Below, one piece after another: positions 15,633-45,795 of a stretch of DNA of 64,000 nucleotides. The position numbers and the translations under genes are program-made. Location: the sequence record PP418987.1; one strand, 5' to 3'. How positions within the stretch are numbered: the stretch's first letter is position 1; every line of letters starts with the position of its first letter. The notes under the pieces were generated by a model. The model was not told where the DNA came from and searched no databases. It saw only the letters and a program-made list of their open reading frames with translations. Origin of the DNA: Escherichia phage UPWr_E4.

Positions 15633-15662
15633 AGTTTAAAATTTTTTCATAAAACTATATAC

Positions 15663-16022: not shown

Positions 16023-16456
16023 TGGCTATTAAATTTGAAGTTAATAAATGGTATCAATTTAAAAATAAACAAGCTCAAGAAAATTTTATTAAAGACCATA
16101 CTGATAACGGAATCTATGCACGCCGTTTAGGTATGCATCCTTTTAAAATTTTAGATGTGGATGCTCTTGGGCGTCCTATTAAAATTATGTCATTTGCTGG
16201 AAATTTAGTACTATCTTCTGGTAAAGATATTTTGGATGAAGATTTTATTTGGCTTTCATCGAATGAAGCTGAATTCTTTAATGAAGTTGAAAATCCATAC
16301 CAGGCAGCTGAAGAACAAGAACAGGAAGAGCAAGAACAGGAAGAGCAAGAACAGATAGAAGATTTTACAGAATTCCCTGTAATGAAAGTTACTATTGAAA
16401 ATAATGAACAGGCATGGTCCTTGTATCAGATGTTGAAAGCTCACTTTAAGGAATAA
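16022..16456 (+). CDS. Hypothetical acidic protein with EEQEQ repeats (T4 goF position)
   Basis: 144 aa; in-frame 15-bp tandem repeats encode EEQEQ x3. Confidence 0.55.
16310..16354 (+). repeat. In-frame 15-bp tandem repeat (3 copies) encoding EEQEQ
   Basis: gaagaacaagaacag / gaagagcaagaacag / gaagagcaagaacag. Confidence 0.6.
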
Positions 16457-28103: not shown

Positions 28104-28255
28104 AAACATTTAAAATTGTCGTAGAATTTTATAACGGCGAAGGTGTAGTCCATCTTAAAGCGGCCAACCAGTTTGATGCGGTAAGAGTATATTGTCAATG
28201 CTTTGAAAGTTCTAAACAAGCTATAAAAATTAAAAGTGTTGAGGAAACCAAATGA
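28100..28255 (+). CDS. Hypothetical small protein
   Basis: 51 aa, ATGA-coupled on both sides. Confidence 0.4.
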
Positions 28256-28719
28256 AAACCTTCAAAGAGCGTCTTGAATTATTAGACCTAGCTTTATTAC
28301 GTGAAACTCCAGAAAGTCTAGCAGCTAAATTACAGGCCTATGGCGACTACACCGAATATACGGAAGAGGATGTTTTAGAAGAGGTTCCTGAAATCTGTTG
28401 GCAAGTAGCTCATTGGAACAATAATGAAAAATATCAACGTCGAATTGTGTGTGCAGCCAACCGCTTTAAGTTAAAAGATGGTGGGACTCTGGTTATTCCT
28501 GGTGCTCGTCATTATTCTAAAGATATGGCTGAAGTTCTTGACCAGGTAAGTGATAAACTTGTATCAGACCATGTTTGTGGTGAAGACCAAGGATTTATTG
28601 ACCAGTATAGCAATTACTGGACACGTGAAGAAGCAATGATTATTGCAACTTACGCTGGACAAGTGCGTATTGAACGTGGTGGTAGTGAAAAAGAACTTTA
28701 CTCTGAGGACCTTTACTAA
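28252..28719 (+). CDS. Hypothetical protein
   Basis: 155-aa ORF. Confidence 0.55.
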
Positions 28720-30701: not shown

Positions 30702-31499
30702 TTATACTCTTGGACCATATATTACTCCAACATTTTGCCAAGTTGGAGCAGATCCTATGACAGCATAACCTGCTGCTCCTCCTGCACCAACCTTTAGAAC
30801 TTTACCACCATCAGACCAGGCATTTTGTCCATTTCCTCCGGCATCGCCGCCCTGGCCAGAGTGAGCATTTCTGTATTGGTAACCACCTCCTGGGGCGACG
30901 TATGAAGCTGCGCCACCTGAGTAACCACCGCCACCACCTGGGCCAAATGGTCTTCCGCCGCCACCACCAATATCTTGCCAGTTTGCCCCTGAGCGAACAC
31001 GGTAAGCAATGCCGCCACCACCGCCTCCGCCACCACAGATTACTCCACCATTGTTAATTCTTAATCGTCCACCAATGTCGTTTTGAATACAATGCCCGCC
31101 TTGTTGTCCATTACCATCTCCACCGGAATGAGTCCATCCACCTTGTCCACCTCTACCCCACATATGAGCGCCAATAATATTTAACTGAACATATTCATTT
31201 GGTGTATCTCCGTACATGAAGAATAAAGGAACATCTTTAGAATATGATACTAAATCACCTGTAATATTAAACACTATAGGTGCATTACCTGCCTCAAAAC
31301 ATCTATCTCGGAACCATTGACCATTGAAGTTATGGTCTGCTCCAAGCGTGTGAATAATTTCTCGTGAGCGACCTGCAAATTGACTCATCCAGCAAGGAAC
31401 ACCCAATCTTAATTGACCAGCCGCTTGACTCATCCAGCGCTGACCCGTTTCATTTACGGATGAACTTCCAATCCAACCGGGAACACCAACTACTGCCAT
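30702..31499 (-). CDS. 38: gp38 tail-fibre adhesin, T2-type with glycine-rich motifs
   Basis: 265 aa from ATG 31499 ([13 protein letters not shown]..., GGAG upstream; track start 31511); poly-Gly islands GGGGGGG / GGGGGY typical of T2-like receptor-recognising gp38. Confidence 0.8.
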
Positions 31500-31512
31500 A
31501 ATTATCTCCAAA

Positions 31513-31531: not shown

Positions 31532-34500
31532 TTAGAATTTAAAATAATTACTAATTTTGCGAGCAATTTTAGTGAAGAAAGGCGTTTTTAATTCTTTAAT
31601 TTCTTCGCTCATTTCTTGGATAGCCTTAATTAAAAGAGCATTTACAGCGGAGTTAGAAATTGTCAGAACATCAGAACCATCAACTTCAACTTTAGACACA
31701 GCTTCCGGTAATTCCTTTTCAAGGTCCTGAGCAATAATACCAACTTCGCGTTTAATAACACTACGGTCTTTAATAGACTTAACCTTATCGTAAATATAAA
31801 CTTTCAGTCGGCATACTTTTTCAAGTGCTCCGTTTTCTAGCTCTTTTTTATTAATCTTAAGACGACCATCGGAACGAATATACACATCGTTAAAGTTACC
31901 ATTACCAGGAGAATAGAAAGTACCGTCGTAATGAAATTCAAATACCGCGTTAGGGTGTCCAGTCGCTGGCGATGCCTGTGCAGATCCAACACGAATAATT
32001 GCTTGCCCCCAATTATTAGGGACACGACGAATACCAAGATCGACGGCAGTTACAAACCCTTGATTGGTGATTACACTTTTTCCTTTAATAATTGGATAAT
32101 AACAATCCTGTGAAACATAACCATGATCGACGAATAATGGAGCTTCTACTCGCCATTGGTTGCCCCAATCACCCGGTTGTCTAGCAATCCATCCAGAACC
32201 GTTAATGTGTACACGATCGCGGTTAACGTTAACCATTGCGATATTTTGTGGATTTAGCGAAATCTCACCATTGTTTGTGATATGTACTGCCGCCTGAGTA
32301 GCATAGCTATAAAATGCTAGCGAATTATCAGCACCACCCTTACCAATATACCAGTTACCACTCCCGTCTACGTCACCACGAATATGCAAAGCATTACCAG
32401 CAGTTGTTGATAATACAATAGAATCACCCGGACGTTTAATAATCAATCTACCTTCGGATTCAACTTCACCAAAGAATTTAGTTTTAATTGCACCAGTCGC
32501 TAAAGTACGTTCAGTGGAAAAATGAACGCCTTTGCTGTCTTCTAACTGAATAATGTTATCGCGCGCATTATTACTATCACCCCAATGGTTAAATTTAAAA
32601 TAATCTCGTGATCCTAAACGTCCGGCATCAAAAGTCATCAAGCCTTTTATATTAATATCACCACCAAAAAATGCGGTGAGAGAATCGCGTTTTAATTTTA
32701 AAACGTTAGCACCACTAGTACCACCCAAAGTAACATCACCAGTTCTTAATTCATAACGGAAAGGTCTATTTGTATTAAAGTTTCCATCTTGATCATTTTC
32801 GTCGGTGGAAAGAATATAAAGACTCTCTCCATCATTACGGAAAATTGTACCAAATTTTCCGCCATACATACGGAATGCATTAGATGAGCGGAATTTAACT
32901 TCTGTTTTAAATGTGGTAGTGTTATTAAGGTTAACAGTAGAGTTAAAATTGGTAGGAGCACCGAAGTTAACTGCGCCATTAAAATCTTGTTGAGCTGTCC
33001 ATGTGTGGCGACCATCTTCAAGAACAACACGGCGGACTGTGCAAGTTCTATTTCCAGAATTACCGAACACACGAACGACAAAATAACGGTAGTTTGTCTG
33101 GGATACAGTACCGCGCCAAACCTGAACAGTACGCCCTGTGCTAGTGTGTTCACTAGGACCAACGGAAAACATAACCAGGTTTCCGTCAATCGTCCCCCAA
33201 TCCATATTTGCTGGCATGTTCTTTATTTTGTTCAAAGGAACGCTAAACATACTACCAGGAACAAAATCAAAGGTTTGCCAATCTAACTCCGCTAATTGAG
33301 CTTTAATACCACCCATACCCAAAGTAATTGGAAGAGAATAAATCGTCCCCCAATCCATATTTGCTGGCATGTTCTTTATTTTGTTCAAAGGAACGCTAAA
33401 CATACTACCAGGAACAAAATCAAAGGTTTGCCAATCTAACTCCGCTAATTGAGCTTTAATACCACCCATACCCAAAGTAATTGGAAGAGAATAAGATGTA
33501 TATACTTCGTTCCATGCACCCCACGCACCACCAGTATATGCACGCTCAAAAATACGATCGCGAGTAGTTGCACCCGTTCCGGCAGTAGTAAATTTTTGGA
33601 AAATAGCACCACCAGAAGCACGCTGTTTAACTTCCAGCAAACCAACAATAACAGTCGGCAAACCTTCACCGGTAGGACAGTTAATAACGGCATCAGTGCC
33701 TAAAATATTATATAACCCAGGAGTTTTAAAATCATTCAGATCTCCGTCATAGAAAGTCGCCGGTGTGACATTACCGACTTGTTGCCAAGGTCCCCATTTA
33801 GGCGCAGAAGCATCCCACGCAGCAGTAAGACAACGAGTATAAACAACACCAAATCTGGTCGTATATCTCTGTGTGCGAGAATAGTTTCCACCTTCATATA
33901 CTTCTAAAAGTCCTTGAGCGGACGATCCTTCTTCTGGGAAATTTCTGTCAAAGGTAGCAATGGAACTTGAACTATTTCGCCACAAACCAAAGTGTTCAGC
34001 GCCTCCTAGATCATTAAGATCAATTGTTGTTGACAGTGGACGAGTACCAGATTGAATATTTCGCCACACACTCCACGGACCATTTACTCCGTTCCATGTA
34101 GCAGTCAAGGAACGAATATAAACATTTCCGTATCTAGTTGTATATCTCTGAGTACCAGCAAATTGACCGGCCACAAATACTTCTAGCACACCTACAGCAT
34201 TTTCTTCTGGAAATTTATTTGCTGGTTGAGCGTTGGTTGAAGTTGCTTTCGACCAAACTCCAAGACATTCTTCAACAGGCCCATACGTATCTAAATTAGC
34301 ATCAACAGGTAATTCGCCATTATTTTTTATAAACGTTGTGCTATTGACATTTATGTCAGATGGAGTTAGCGTGATATCTTTTGACCCATCAAAGGATATA
34401 CCATTAATTTTTCGTGCTGTTTTTAATTTCGTTGCAGTTGCAGCGTTACCTGTTAAATTTCCAATTATATTTCCATTAACAGTTAAAGAACCATCAATTG

Positions 34501-34669
34501 TTCCTCCATATTTTAAACCTAATTCTATAACACTACCTGAGTCATCTTTTGTGAAAATTGTTTTATCTTTTAAGTTTATAGCCAATTCACCTTCGGCTAA
34601 TACTGAAGCAGCAGGACGTTGACCTGCAGTTTTGCTTCTTTTAAATTGTATTTGTTTTAAAGTAGCCAT
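31532..34669 (-). CDS. 37: Long tail fibre distal subunit gp37
   Basis: 1045 aa (T4 gp37 1026 aa); N-terminus [33 protein letters not shown]; contains a tandem 51-aa duplication. Confidence 0.9.
33188..33493 (-). repeat. Perfect tandem duplication, 2 x 153 bp, inside gene 37 (residues 393-443 and 444-494)
   Basis: Identical DNA at 33188-33340 and 33341-33493; protein [51 protein letters not shown] repeated twice. Confidence 0.85.
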
Positions 34670-35390: not shown

Positions 35391-36506
35391 TTAAAATTCT
35401 CTAAATTCCTGTCCAAACACTTTGCCAGTTTTAGAAGAGGCTTGTGTAGGAAGTACCATTATATCTGGAGGTGAAGCCGATTCACAGACATAATTAACGC
35501 GAATACCGTTGACGCCAAATTCGGCAGGTTTTGAAATGCCGCCATTTCTTGATACTTCAGAAAAACTTAAATTTCTCATGCCGCCTTGACCTGCTTGAGC
35601 AGTTCTTTGTGCATATATCGTAAATCCTACGGCGTTTTCTGGAACAACTACATAGTCTTCTTTTAATTCCCAAGACCCAGCTTGCCCAGTAAACTCAGCT
35701 TGGGTCGAGGAAATATATCCATTTGATGCATCATAAAAACGAATGGATATGTTTGTAGTTCCAAGATCAAGTAAATCAGCATCAGCATATAACTGTGCTT
35801 TAAGATAAAGAACATCACCAGGAATTAAATTATAGTCAGAAAGTTTACTTATAGCAGCTGAAGTTGGCAATCGCGCAATTTCGTTATTAGTTCCACCAAC
35901 TGCTGACATGAATTGCTCGACACTTTCATAAGTTCTTTTTGGAAATCCTGTCGCTCCGACGTCTTCTAAACTATCAAATACAACATCTAAAATAGTTTGA
36001 TAATCATCTGTGCTTTTTCTATTACTTAGTTTAACATGCTCTAATGCAATAGCTCTTTTAGAAGAAGTATAAAAAGCAGCATATGATACGTCAAATCTTG
36101 ACAATACTGAATCTGATGGAAAAACTGAAGTTCCTGCTCCCCTTAACCAAGATACCACTTCAGGAGGAAAATTAACCTTTCCGCTAGTTAATATAGCAAC
36201 AAGTCTATTGTTTGACAAAGAATTCATGAAACTAACAAAAGCGGCAGATGTTGTATTGTTTGAAGCAGAAAAAGCATATGACTTACTATCAACTAATGCT
36301 CCCGTAGAAGGGTCAAAAACTCTTAAATGAAGACCTGCACTAAATGTTTGATTTCCAACGGGATTATCCTGAAATTTAACATATGGCCCCGCAGTAGAAA
36401 GCGGGCAAGAACCCGCTATGCTTATTTTATATCTTACTGAATTGCTTTCCGATAAAAATGGCGTTTGGACATATCCTTGTCCAAACTCTGCCATAAATTT
36501 TTCCAT
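35391..36506 (-). CDS. 35: Long tail fibre hinge protein gp35
   Basis: 371 aa (T4 gp35 372 aa). Confidence 0.85.
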   Translation of the reverse strand: MEKFMAEFGQGYVQTPFLSESNSVRYKISIAGSCPLSTAGPYVKFQDNPVGNQTFSAGLHLRVFDPSTGALVDSKSYAFSASNNTTSAAFVSFMNSLSNNRLVAILTSGKVNFPPEVVSWLRGAGTSVFPSDSVLSRFDVSYAAFYTSSKRAIALEHVKLSNRKSTDDYQTILDVVFDSLEDVGATGFPKRTYESVEQFMSAVGGTNNEIARLPTSAAISKLSDYNLIPGDVLYLKAQLYADADLLDLGTTNISIRFYDASNGYISSTQAEFTGQAGSWELKEDYVVVPENAVGFTIYAQRTAQAGQGGMRNLSFSEVSRNGGISKPAEFGVNGIRVNYVCESASPPDIMVLPTQASSKTGKVFGQEFREF

Positions 36507-36514
36507 AATACCTC

Positions 36515-39500
36515 TTATTCAATCCACTCAAATTTAACAGTTTTATTCACTGGGTCAGGAATAATGCGAACATTACCAATTCGCAAGAAATCGCGAATAG
36601 TAAGATTACCTATTATTCCATTATCAGATGGGATCGCTCCTATATCTGAAGGTTGAGGAGGGTTACCTCCGTCAAATACCTGAACAAAACTTGACCAAGA
36701 GTTTTTGGTTTTCTGCCATGTACGTGTCCAGCGAGTGGTACGTGCTTCTGGGGTCGTTGGATAAGTAATCCAATCTTGGTAAAGTGAATCAAGTGTGTTA
36801 CCAAACTGAGTCAATGTACCAGGAGATTTAACTTCTTCACCACGTTCTAAGTATGGAAGTCCAGTCACTTCATTAGTTTTTTCAACCATTTTAAAATAAC
36901 CCGGGAACTGGTTATAAGTGGCTGAATCATTAATATCGATTGACCAGAATCCTACTGTATCAGATGTTGGCGCACGGGTATATAAATCAGAGGTTTTAGT
37001 ACCCTGAGAACGAATTCTCGAGTTAACAGTCAAACCACCCGAACTTATAGTAGCACCTTTTGCAATGATTAAGCTTTCACCAATCGTTACTTGGCCAGAT
37101 GCATTATTAATAGCTAAAGGACGCAATCCATTAAATCCGCCAGTTTGATCACCCGATGCAGTAAGCATAAAATTCGTTACTGACCCGTCATTGCGAACAA
37201 TGAAACCATAATTTCCGCTAATAGCACGGAAAGCATTTGCGCTTCGAGAAATAATTTCACCAGTTGCAGTGACTGAATTACCAAATGTTGCTACACCATT
37301 TGCATTCAATGTTCCTGAAGCATTAACATTTATCGGTGTTACTGTACCGTTGATATTAAATGTTATATTTCCAGCTTTATTACGCTGAGAATAAAAATGA
37401 CTAGACGTTTCATCACTAACTTCAAATACGGTAGAACGTGTTGTGTCTGATTCCCCACTAAACTGATTTCCCCACACTCTGACTGTCATCGTTTGAGCTG
37501 GGTTTGTTCCAGTTTGAGGTCCTTTCTCAAAAATCAGACGAGTTGCCGTTCCAGTATTAGAAATAGTTAATGTACTATTTGCTGAAACTGATCCACCGAA
37601 TGTAGCAGTACTAGATGATACAAGAGGGGCACTCAGATTCGTTTGTTGGGTTAAGGTTAGTGAACCATTAACTGTTTGTGCAATGTCCCTACGAATGAAC
37701 TGGAGCGAATCTAGACCATCTAATAAATTACTATCTACAGCTTTTGCTTTTAATGGCAAATAATTTGCTAATACGCGATTTAATTCATATGGTGATACTG
37801 CATAACCATTTTTCTCATATGATTCTAATGGCTGTGTTGAACCTACCGTATCATTACCAACAAACGTTAATGAACCAGAAGAAGTTTTAACAAACCCTCT
37901 TATCAGAGTAGTTGCTGCCCAAGTTGGTTCACTCTGCACAATCCATTTTAAATTTTTTGGAGATACAGCAGTATTTGCTGACGTTCCAGTCACAGTTTCA
38001 GACTGAGTTGCAACTTTAATAACACCTTCTTGCGATTCGGTAGATTTAGTACCTAAAAGCTTTTTAGGAGTTATTAAAACATTATCTAATGTTCCTGCAG
38101 CAGCTTCAACTTGTGTAGCTACACGAAGTGTACCACGCTGTGTCTCATTTGCTTCAAGAATATTAAGGGTATAATGGTCCCAGAGAGTTCCTGATTCAAC
38201 TAATCCAGATAGAGCAACAACAGAAGTACGATCAGTACTATTAAATCTGGTTTTAATTTTTAATGGTGTAGAGATACGAGTATCGTCGACGCCTGCGTCG
38301 AATTCAACCTGTGTAGCAATTTCAGCTATACCACTTAAACTTTCAGTTGCTCTACGGTCATTTAAAGTTTTAGGAGTGACTGCACGAGTATAGTCAGTTC
38401 CTGTATTAACTTCACTTTGCGTAGCAATTTCAATTAAACCAATTCTTCCATCAGTTGATGTCTTTTTATGTAACGTTTCTGGCGTTACAACCGCATTTGC
38501 CCATCCTTCTTGGCTTTGTCCAGCAATTACTTCACTTTCAACTGCTAAAATTACTGCGCCTTGTTGCGTTGGAGTAGCTTTATACTGATCCAAAGCTTTA
38601 GGTGAAACAACTAAATTATTAGTGTTTTTATTATAAACATTCGTACCATTTAATTCACGACTAGAAGCTGGAGTAGCTCCTGCGGTAGATACAAAAGTTA
38701 CAATACCCGATAATGTTTCAGAACCTTGACGAGCTTGAAGCTTTTTAGGAGTGATGATTGTAGTATCATCAGTACCTGTATTAGTTTCCTGCTGCGTAGC
38801 AATTTCAGCGACACCTCTGCGAGTTTCTGTAGCAGTTCTTTCATTCAGCTTTTTAGGAGTGATGATAAGGTCATCTGCAAAAGAGAATGTGGTGTTCTGA
38901 TTCACTTGAGCAGTAGTTGCTATTCTTGCAATACCTCTGCGAGTTTCTGTAGCAGTACGATTAGCTAACGTTTCTGGAGTAATTGCCAATTCTTTTTGCG
39001 GAGAATTTTCTAAATCAGCATTTGCTTGAGCTTGTGTAGCTAAAGCAATTACGCCTAATCTTGCTCTAGTAGAATTATTTAAAGAATCGACTCTTTCAAC
39101 TGTTGGAACGTTTTGCTGTACAACCCAGTATTTTCCATCAGAATCTTCTATATAAGCAAGTTGCAAAACTGGTACATAATTAGTTTCACCGTTAAAAACT
39201 AATTCTTGAACTGTTACCCATTCAGCTTCAGGCGGATATTCTGAACGTTTTGGGAATTGCAGCAATTGAACTGAAGAAGCAATTTTATCTTCACCAGCAG
39301 CTTTGATTTTAACTGTTTGTCCTTTTCTCATGTAATTCATGGAAATTTTAACAGTATCACCAACAGAAATATCAGTCGGAAGCTGAAGTTCAATTGTTTG
39401 GGTTGTTCCATTATTCGCGCCAAATACCATGACTTCTTCATTTGGACGAATATTTGAATTAGTTGTTATAATGCGTAAACGTGCTTTACTATCCCCGTCA

Positions 39501-40384
39501 AACAATCTCCACAATTTCTCATTATCGTCAAACATCAAGAAACCGTCAATCGATGTACGGCCTTCAATGGAATGAGTTCCAACTTCTTGTACTGAAGTCG
39601 TTTCATCGTATGTAGTAACAATTGTATGATAAAGTGGATTCAGTTTATCTAAATCAACGAAATTAATAATATCGCCATGATTAGCAAATCTCGGAAGTTT
39701 AACATTAATTGGTGCAGCAGAAGTAAATCTACGTACGATAAAATCATTAGATTGTGCTTGATATGCAGTCGATGGAGTAACAATCGCAGCTTCTCTGCTA
39801 TAATCAGCAATATACATTTGCCACAAACGATTATTAAAAATGAATACCATCTGTGACTTTGGATGAGTCATTAAAACTGAACGTACCTGTTCACCTCTAA
39901 AATTGACAATACTCTGATTTGAAGAATTTATTTTAACCTGATTTATGCCAGGTTTTCCACCGATATCTTGAATTATTACGGTTTCTCCATCAAGCGGAGA
40001 AGGTGGTAAAGTAAACTCAATGTCATTGCCAACTGATGTATCTACTGAAATTGCTTCTCCGGATTTTAATTGATATGGTCCAGATGATACAGTTGTATAT
40101 ACGGCATCAGTACGTAATGCTTTCCAACGAATTCTATTAAAATTTCCAGCAGGTTTTGGAATATTATCCGTTGCTGCCCAAAAACGATTATTATAAATGA
40201 TTACAAAATCTTTTAAATATCCACGAGTTGGATCATATTGCTGAACTGTGTTTTCTTGAATTAAGTAATCAACGTTAACACCGTCAGTTCCTACGGTACG
40301 ATCAGCTAAAGCTACGTTGATTATTTTATCGCCACCTGCGTCCAGACCATCTTCTGCTCTGAACTTTCTTTTAATCTCGGCCAT
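36515..40384 (-). CDS. 34: Long tail fibre proximal subunit gp34
   Basis: 1289 aa, exact size of T4 gp34; repeated TETRRG(I/V)A-IAT-type motifs. Confidence 0.9.
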   Translation of the reverse strand: MAEIKRKFRAEDGLDAGGDKIINVALADRTVGTDGVNVDYLIQENTVQQYDPTRGYLKDFVIIYNNRFWAATDNIPKPAGNFNRIRWKALRTDAVYTTVSSGPYQLKSGEAISVDTSVGNDIEFTLPPSPLDGETVIIQDIGGKPGINQVKINSSNQSIVNFRGEQVRSVLMTHPKSQMVFIFNNRLWQMYIADYSREAAIVTPSTAYQAQSNDFIVRRFTSAAPINVKLPRFANHGDIINFVDLDKLNPLYHTIVTTYDETTSVQEVGTHSIEGRTSIDGFLMFDDNEKLWRLFDGDSKARLRIITTNSNIRPNEEVMVFGANNGTTQTIELQLPTDISVGDTVKISMNYMRKGQTVKIKAAGEDKIASSVQLLQFPKRSEYPPEAEWVTVQELVFNGETNYVPVLQLAYIEDSDGKYWVVQQNVPTVERVDSLNNSTRARLGVIALATQAQANADLENSPQKELAITPETLANRTATETRRGIARIATTAQVNQNTTFSFADDLIITPKKLNERTATETRRGVAEIATQQETNTGTDDTTIITPKKLQARQGSETLSGIVTFVSTAGATPASSRELNGTNVYNKNTNNLVVSPKALDQYKATPTQQGAVILAVESEVIAGQSQEGWANAVVTPETLHKKTSTDGRIGLIEIATQSEVNTGTDYTRAVTPKTLNDRRATESLSGIAEIATQVEFDAGVDDTRISTPLKIKTRFNSTDRTSVVALSGLVESGTLWDHYTLNILEANETQRGTLRVATQVEAAAGTLDNVLITPKKLLGTKSTESQEGVIKVATQSETVTGTSANTAVSPKNLKWIVQSEPTWAATTLIRGFVKTSSGSLTFVGNDTVGSTQPLESYEKNGYAVSPYELNRVLANYLPLKAKAVDSNLLDGLDSLQFIRRDIAQTVNGSLTLTQQTNLSAPLVSSSTATFGGSVSANSTLTISNTGTATRLIFEKGPQTGTNPAQTMTVRVWGNQFSGESDTTRSTVFEVSDETSSHFYSQRNKAGNITFNINGTVTPINVNASGTLNANGVATFGNSVTATGEIISRSANAFRAISGNYGFIVRNDGSVTNFMLTASGDQTGGFNGLRPLAINNASGQVTIGESLIIAKGATISSGGLTVNSRIRSQGTKTSDLYTRAPTSDTVGFWSIDINDSATYNQFPGYFKMVEKTNEVTGLPYLERGEEVKSPGTLTQFGNTLDSLYQDWITYPTTPEARTTRWTRTWQKTKNSWSSFVQVFDGGNPPQPSDIGAIPSDNGIIGNLTIRDFLRIGNVRIIPDPVNKTVKFEWIE

Positions 40385-44661: not shown

Positions 44662-45048
44662 ATGGAAATCGGCAAAAAATACGAGTTAAATCCACACCGT
44701 ATTAAATCTTTCATTGATATTAGTTCATCAAATGCTAATATGGTCGGCATCATTCAAGAAAATGGTGGTTGGTTTGAAGTTAAATCAATATCAAGTTTAG
44801 ATGGCTTTGATTATGTAACCGAAATCATTTGTGCTAATGGTGAAATCTATAATGATGATGGTATGGGTGATGATTATTTTGAACTTAGTGAAGAAGAGTT
44901 TTATTGTTTCCGCGAATATAAAGAACCGACTTCTGAAGAAGATGAAGTCAAAGACAAGGTTTCTGGCGTAACAAAAATTCACTGCATTGTTGACGAAAAC
45001 AATGTAGATGAAATCATTGAACTTTTGCGAAAAACTTTCAAAAAGTAG
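44662..45048 (+). CDS. Hypothetical protein
   Basis: 128 aa from ATG 44662 (GAGGA upstream). Confidence 0.55.
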   Translation: MEIGKKYELNPHRIKSFIDISSSNANMVGIIQENGGWFEVKSISSLDGFDYVTEIICANGEIYNDDGMGDDYFELSEEEFYCFREYKEPTSEEDEVKDKVSGVTKIHCIVDENNVDEIIELLRKTFKK

Positions 45049-45439: not shown

Positions 45440-45795
45440 ATGTCTGACATTCGTGTAGCTGGAATTGCTCGAGTAAGTATTCGTTGCCAACTTAAAACTG
45501 CACCTGGGACGGCTTATATTAATTTATCACACGACCTATGTTCTAGTGAAAGACAGTTAACAGGTGTAATTACATTTTACGCTGGATTTGGCGGAAACGA
45601 ATTTACTGTAGGCGAATTTGTTGGCTGTAAATTAAAAGTTCAGAAGAACGTATTAGAACTTTTTAATGACCTTTACGATGATAGTGATGAAGTTTTTGAT
45701 GAAATCGCACAAGCAGTTAACAGAGGAATGGTAACTTTAGTTAAAATGATTAAAGATAGCGGATTTGCTTCTGGCCCCTTTCAGTGGGAGGTAAT

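Follow-up and report, generated by a model that had tools for sequence, protein, structure and literature searches.

A perfect, in-frame 153-bp tandem duplication within long tail fibre gene 37 in the deposited sequence of Escherichia phage UPWr_E4

Gene 37 of T4 is essential for adsorption. The shaft of the fibre is thought to relay the receptor signal through its stiffness, and domains P3 and P4 of the gp34 fibre protein are five-stranded antiparallel sheets (PMC5537660). Buth et al. (2018) class phi11 gp45 (5efv), phage K gp144 (5m9f) and T4 gp34 (5nxf) as pyocin-knob-like, beside the pyocin fibre (PMC6116203). Viable, selected tandem duplications in T4 gene 37 are credited to Tetart et al. 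(1996) where that work is cited in PMC7002106. Perfect repeats can also have a technical origin, and artificial end overlaps or terminal repeats are known inside deposited phage sequences (PMC5923482, PMC8785237).

The window analysed here is a stretch of 64,000 nucleotides from Escherichia phage UPWr_E4 (PP418987.1). The tail fibre genes run in the order gp34-gp35-gp36-gp37-gp38-holin t, which is the same in the annotated records of fFiEco06 and a15. Around gene 37, Pfam matches are found to Phage_holin_T, GP38, Phage_T4_gp36 and Gp34 domains. The first 66 residues of gp37 are 79% identical to T4 gp37, and the remainder is of the T2/T6 mosaic type. The gene had been named gene 37 in the first-pass annotation, and synteny, the N-terminus, the S74 domain and colinearity all support that name and a T2/T6-type fibre with gp38 downstream. 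The positions of gene 37, its domains and the duplicated units are collected in Table 1.

Table 1. Gene 37, its neighbour gp38, and the domains and duplicated units within gp37 (positions are those of the window)
Feature	Positions	Strand	Basis
Gene 37, long tail fibre distal subunit, T2/T6 type, 1045 aa (994 aa in close relatives)	31532..34669	-	ORF and colinearity
gp38 adhesin, 269 aa, marks the T2/T6-type fibre	30702..31511	-	Pfam GP38 E=8.6e-67, Gp38_N E=3.2e-19
Knob 1, aa 120-206	34052..34312	-	Internal repeat HMM, pyocin fibre profile match
Knob 2, aa 213-299	33773..34033	-	Internal repeat HMM, pyocin fibre profile match
Knob 3, aa 305-392, third of three pyocin-type knobs	33494..33757	-	Internal repeat HMM, pyocin fibre profile match; directly abuts the upstream edge of the duplication
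Duplication copy 1 (first in the protein), aa 393-443	33341..33493	-	Repeat comparison and translation
Orphan half-domain, aa 399-443, HMM positions 1-45	33341..33475	-	hmmsearch, 48.7 bits
Duplication copy 2, aa 444-494, runs straight into the remainder of the domain	33188..33340	-	Repeat comparison and translation
Complete knob-like domain, aa 450-548, HMM positions 1-99	33026..33322	-	hmmsearch, 111.8 bits
gp34-like trimerisation / beta-helix segment, aa 573-638	32756..32953	-	Pfam PF21446 E=2.5e-12
C-terminal intramolecular chaperone, Peptidase_S74, aa 933-991	31697..31873	-	Pfam PF13884 E=4.5e-11

The gp34-like segment of gp37 aligns by phmmer to the gp34 structures 4uxe, 5nxf and 9x3r, sits downstream of the duplication and is unaffected by it. 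PDB entry 9x3r is a full-length T4 gp34 chain of 1289 aa. The match of gp37 to the tip structure of S16 gp37 (6f45) is weak, and no PDB chain matches the N-terminal or middle part (aa 1-490) by sequence. Two further observations concern the neighbouring fibre genes. The knee-cap protein gp35 (371 aa, 35391-36506) has a Pfam match to ILEI (PF15711, interleukin-like EMT inducer) at aa 58-112, with an E-value of 8e-8 and above the gathering score. Gene 34 (36515-40384) contains four diverged 68-nt direct repeats at 38007-38983 that are 63-72% identical and are probably repeated fibre motifs of the proximal half-fibre.

Other repeated elements also occur in the window. A 59-nt element is found in seven copies, at 15638, 23049, 23556, 26697, 29661, 44297 and 45029. 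It has the form AAAAATTTTTCACAAAAC.GTTTACA...GGTACTATA..ACTATCA with an upstream A/T tract, and we take it to resemble T4-type early promoters. At 16310-16354, a 15-nt unit (GAAGAGCAAGAACAG) is repeated three times in tandem with 96% matches and an in-frame length.

The first-pass annotation had described two perfect, in-frame 153-bp copies in gene 37, and this description stands. Direct comparison shows that 33188-33340 and 33341-33493 are byte-identical units in tandem, and Tandem Repeats Finder reports a period of 153 with 2.0 copies, 100% matches and a score of 614. No other long tandem or perfect direct repeat exists within the 64-kb window. Both units are in frame and cut on codon boundaries, and they encode the same 51 aa, beginning YSLPITLG, in aa 393-443 and again in aa 444-494. 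The second copy adds a computed 5.63 kDa to each gp37 chain. The identity of the copies extends by one base more, an A at 33494, so the unit boundaries are ambiguous by 1 nt.

At the junction of the two copies, GGAAGAGAATA is followed directly by AATCGTCCCC. In the window the 35-nt junction is present a single time, and none of 100 shuffles contains it, a result that excludes a chance origin of the 153-bp repeat. The breakpoints share no microhomology beyond 1 nt, and no notable hairpins or inverted repeats flank them. A new T4 late promoter at the junction was considered and rejected, since by eye the junction reads AATAAATC and not TATAAATA.

The nature of the copied material was approached through homologues of the region. 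A HMMER search of 1.84 billion protein representatives with gp37 aa 444-565 as the query returned 48 proteins. The distant matches are P2-like and other myophage fibres, all aligned from query position 6/7 to 105/106, and many of them carry 2-3 matched stretches. One hit with 15 matched stretches (P0036) is a eukaryotic Ig-repeat protein and was left out as a false positive. An earlier homologue search had yielded only fragmentary P2-like prophage proteins (3, then 12), which are unsuited to copy counts. From 45 full-length fibre proteins, a profile of 99 positions was built, with the consensus LGiGg...mtNvPaG...NYr.y.VrvsGakGsRtFtVRqi (middle part omitted). The domain that it describes occurs in T-even gp37, in P2 gpH-type fibres and in many other myophage and prophage fibres.

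Across the 45 full-length proteins, each of the approximately 65 domain instances starts at position 1-3 and ends at position 97-99, and a further 12 instances in 11 IMG/VR loci are complete too. Taken together, none of the roughly 75 other instances is truncated; whole domains often stand in tandem, 2-3 to a protein, and in other fibres NGGTGAtT..AR.NLG linkers separate them. By comparison with this profile, the 51-aa unit of UPWr_E4 is a 6-aa linker (YSLPIT) followed by the first 45 of the 99 positions of the conserved domain. No Pfam or NCBIfam model covers the 99-position domain, and no solved homologue was found for it in the PDB by sequence. The definition of this widespread, unannotated 99-aa knob-like fibre domain family is the more durable by-product of the analysis and may be more useful for annotation than the duplication itself.

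The fold of the domain was modelled with AlphaFold as a monomer of aa 444-557, using a 53-sequence alignment of the domain. The model has a mean pLDDT of 88.3 and a pTM of 0.78, and it contains five main strands at model residues 31-40, 55-63, 70-76, 86-94 and 97-104. The duplication boundary between I494 and D495 (model residues 51/52) lies in a well-ordered loop between strand 1 and strand 2, and the copied part is predicted to hold only strand 1 and the N-terminal loops. The predicted fold is nearest to a knob-like set comprising 9euf, 5efv, 6cu2/6cl6, 5nxh and 5m9f. With high rmsd values and no significant Foldseek result, the assignment of this fourth domain to a five-stranded knob-like fold carries only moderate confidence. 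Such a fold agrees with phmmer, which aligns gp37 aa 492-650 to gp34 aa 928-1103. A second AlphaFold run on aa 300-620 with both copies, using a 4-sequence alignment, gave a mean pLDDT of 41.6 with only knob 3 moderately confident, and because its pLDDT is so low it says nothing on the folding of the duplicated region.

An alternative identity for the 51 aa was also considered, namely a self-contained neck and beta-helix linker joining knob 3 to a gp34 P3-like prism. Two findings led to its rejection. Alignments to distant homologues invariably cover the full 99-aa unit, and the confident model places strand 1 of the sheet inside the copied part. The first-pass annotation had read the 51 aa as a piece of the shaft that lengthens the distal half-fibre. 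That reading is replaced here by the linker and 45 of the 99 domain positions, with strand 1 only; lengthening by a rigid module is unsupported because the copied part corresponds to strand 1 of a five-stranded sheet.

The domains that precede the duplication are of another type. Positions 33494-34312 (aa 120-392) encode three tandem repeats of ~87 aa that are homologous to the R1/R2 pyocin Knob. A profile of knobs 1-3 matches the R1/R2 pyocin fibres 6cl5 (E=1.2e-9) and 6cl6 (E=1.9e-6), and Pa193 gp47 is also matched. Pfam annotates none of these three repeats in gp37. A fourth repeat of this kind in the region after knob 3 was considered and rejected, as the knob HMM finds nothing there at E<=1000 and the hhalign probability is 0.4%. 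Any resemblance of the fourth domain to knobs 1-3 would be at the level of the predicted fold only.

Related phages carry the duplicated segment once. Without one copy, UPWr_E4 gp37 is 2985 nt long and colinear with fFiEco06 gp37 (994 aa), from which this single-copy version differs by 24 nt and 7 aa (99.2% nucleotide identity), with no difference inside the unit. Against a15, megablast aligns the window in 8 colinear blocks of 94.7-99.0% identity. Besides the duplication junction, the alignment is broken by two small a15 insertions and three short unaligned stretches of the window. Among the early genes, small variable insertions or replacements account for the stretches at 28112-28360, 44678-44874 and 45442-45792, which are unaligned to a15, the closest relative. 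In the region of gene 37, the single structural difference from a15 is that the subject coordinates overlap by 154 nt at 33341. The nearest relative does not switch across the junction, and the best phage match across 24 kb is 98.7%.

A query with the region matches 188 phage records, and the best 40 of these each span 153 bp less. The junction-spanning DNA query matches 187 records; the best 30 of the 187, including every record at 100% identity, match as two pieces, as expected of a single copy. In tblastn, the 51-aa unit matches 223 records at exactly 223 places, one copy each, and this set includes P2-type gpH fibres at ~59% identity. The comparison with gp37 of related phages that the first-pass annotation had suggested is thereby provided: 223 of 223 records are single-copy, and the fFiEco06 and a15 genes are both 2985 nt. 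Neither the exact 35-mer junction nor the exact 28-mer junction occurs in IMG/VR, in JGI metagenome contigs or in 185,579 species genomes. The codon-degenerate junction M-D-W-G-[TV]-I-Y-S-L-P, whose pattern matches the window itself as a positive control, is absent from IMG/VR, metagenome contigs and genome contigs. The exact 1045-aa protein is absent from an index of 153 billion genes, and a literature search on gp37 tandem duplication or a 153-bp long tail fiber repeat returned nothing relevant. Among the public sequences searched, the duplication appears unique to UPWr_E4.

The zero divergence of the copies had earlier been taken to mean either a very recent event or an artefact, and with byte-identical copies this pair of choices holds. 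We lean towards the view that the tandem duplication in gene 37 is genuine and very recent, and that it arose by illegitimate recombination and became fixed. The repeat is perfect, in frame and codon-aligned, and random placement would give an in-frame result only one time in three. The remainder of the gene is intact and colinear with the 994-aa gp37 genes. We reason that a de Bruijn assembler cannot create a junction in the middle of a contig without reads that contain this junction. Fibre shafts tolerate extra material at this position because the domain is amplified repeatedly as 2-3 whole copies elsewhere, and the viable duplications credited to T4 gene 37 also favour a real event.

It is also quite possible that the duplication is a finishing artefact. 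In that case, the contig ends of a circularly permuted genome would have overlapped by 153 bp and been circularised or rotated untrimmed, and the gp37 of the phage would really be 994 aa. The copies are identical, the junction is essentially without microhomology, and neither the ~234 related loci nor the three large collections contain a second example: the 223 records are single-copy, and the 11 IMG/VR loci hold complete domains only. These features recall the end overlaps already known from deposited phage sequences; however, a very recent real event would account equally for the perfect identity and for the absence from relatives. The position of the breakpoint is a further point for the artefact and against a real event. 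It falls in the middle of a domain of which every other full-length instance is complete, which is expected of a random join and not of selection for a functional module.

The handling of related genomes bears on the same question. The records of the nearest relatives begin exactly at a CDS start codon and have therefore been re-oriented to a gene start, which counts against a real duplication. Re-orientation is the step that turns untrimmed contig-end overlaps into internal tandem repeats. SPAdes was the assembler used for these relatives (PMC8614997). Moreover, a 153-bp perfect direct repeat should be lost fast through T4 recombination, and its persistence as the consensus needs explaining. 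Several points nevertheless weigh against the artefact. Besides the one-in-three chance of an in-frame outcome, gene 37 makes up only ~1.8% of a ~168-kb genome. The window is otherwise without assembly oddity, having no other long perfect repeats and being colinear with a15. The 153 bp also differ from the documented SPAdes end overlap of 127 bp (PMC5923482), although overlap-layout assemblers are expected to give arbitrary overlap lengths.

In another account, the duplication is real but is a minority or heterogeneous allele, so that part of the stock carries it and the two-copy path was chosen by the assembler or a curator. A loop in an assembly graph can be walked either one or two times, the one-copy and two-copy forms should convert into each other through T4-type recombination, and nothing in the window speaks against such a mixture. 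This account is a sub-case of a real duplication, and we consider it very unlikely in its own right.

For the favoured genuine event, illegitimate recombination or replication slippage is proposed as the origin because the homology at the junction is only 1 nt. The zero divergence may have been kept through fixation by a plaque-purification bottleneck or by selection. Each chain would gain 51 aa from the duplication, placed after the third pyocin-type knob and ahead of the domain that follows it. The resulting gp37 would be ordered as knob 3, an orphan half-domain, the complete domain, the gp34-like beta-helix, the tip and the C-terminal chaperone. From the start of the complete domain to the C-terminus the protein would be left intact, the register should be kept because the same insert is present on all three chains, and the trimer probably still assembles. 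With one beta-strand and loops, the orphan half would be unable to build a five-stranded sheet or a three-sheet prism alone. We infer that it is most likely a poorly ordered bulge or a flexible joint rather than an extra rigid bead, and that the length of the fibre could change by anywhere from about 0 to several nm.

The strongest form of this proposal, a real and stably maintained duplication giving a viable T-even phage with an orphan half-knob (51 aa in each of three chains) in its stiff distal half-fibre, is unlikely in our judgement. If it were true, the flexible joint or bulge might alter reach, adsorption kinetics or host range. The phage would then provide an equivalent, in the middle of the shaft, of the tip-domain duplications of Tetart et al., and would capture the initial stage in the rise of whole-domain fibre arrays. 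A real duplication would also be a natural test of the structural insult that a trimeric phage fibre tolerates, and repeated fibre domains may have evolved through raw intermediates like it, which bears on the engineering of fibre length and host range. If the duplication is an artefact, it is a curation error that makes the deposited gp37 51 aa too long and should be corrected before receptor-binding-protein engineering or comparative work. Either way, the significance is modest, as this is one single unreplicated event.

Several known systems resemble parts of this locus. The tandem duplications described earlier in T-even gene 37 reportedly lie in the C-terminal receptor-recognition region of gp37. 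As far as they are described where they are cited, they are likewise in frame and give a longer gp37 (Tetart, Repoila, Monod & Krisch 1996, J Mol Biol 258:726; cited in PMC7002106). In contrast, the UPWr_E4 event lies in the middle of the shaft, at aa 393-494 of 1045 and far from the tip, and UPWr_E4 has a separate gp38 adhesin. Whereas the earlier type reportedly copies a whole small domain, UPWr_E4 copies only a linker and 45 of 99 domain positions.

Untrimmed contig-end overlaps (PMC5923482; PMC8785237) likewise leave a perfect direct repeat that is about as long as a read or k-mer and has no biological counterpart in relatives. For SPAdes, the overlap on record measures 127 bp and is located at the contig ends, whereas the repeat of UPWr_E4 is 153 bp, internal, tandem and in frame.

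Among fibre domains, knobs 1-3 of gp37 are homologous in sequence to the R-type pyocin knobs, whereas the fourth domain is alike in predicted fold only. The five-stranded model of the fourth domain fits the sheets of gp34 P3 and P4 (PMC5537660). The natural whole-domain arrays of P2-like and other myophage fibres belong to the same domain family and also follow pyocin-type knobs. These arrays consist of complete units (HMM positions 1 to 97-99) that are diverged and separated by linkers, whereas UPWr_E4 has a zero-divergence copy of the first half only. An in-frame tandem duplication in gene 37 is thus of a known kind, and it is the mid-shaft position and the copying of half a domain that set UPWr_E4 apart.
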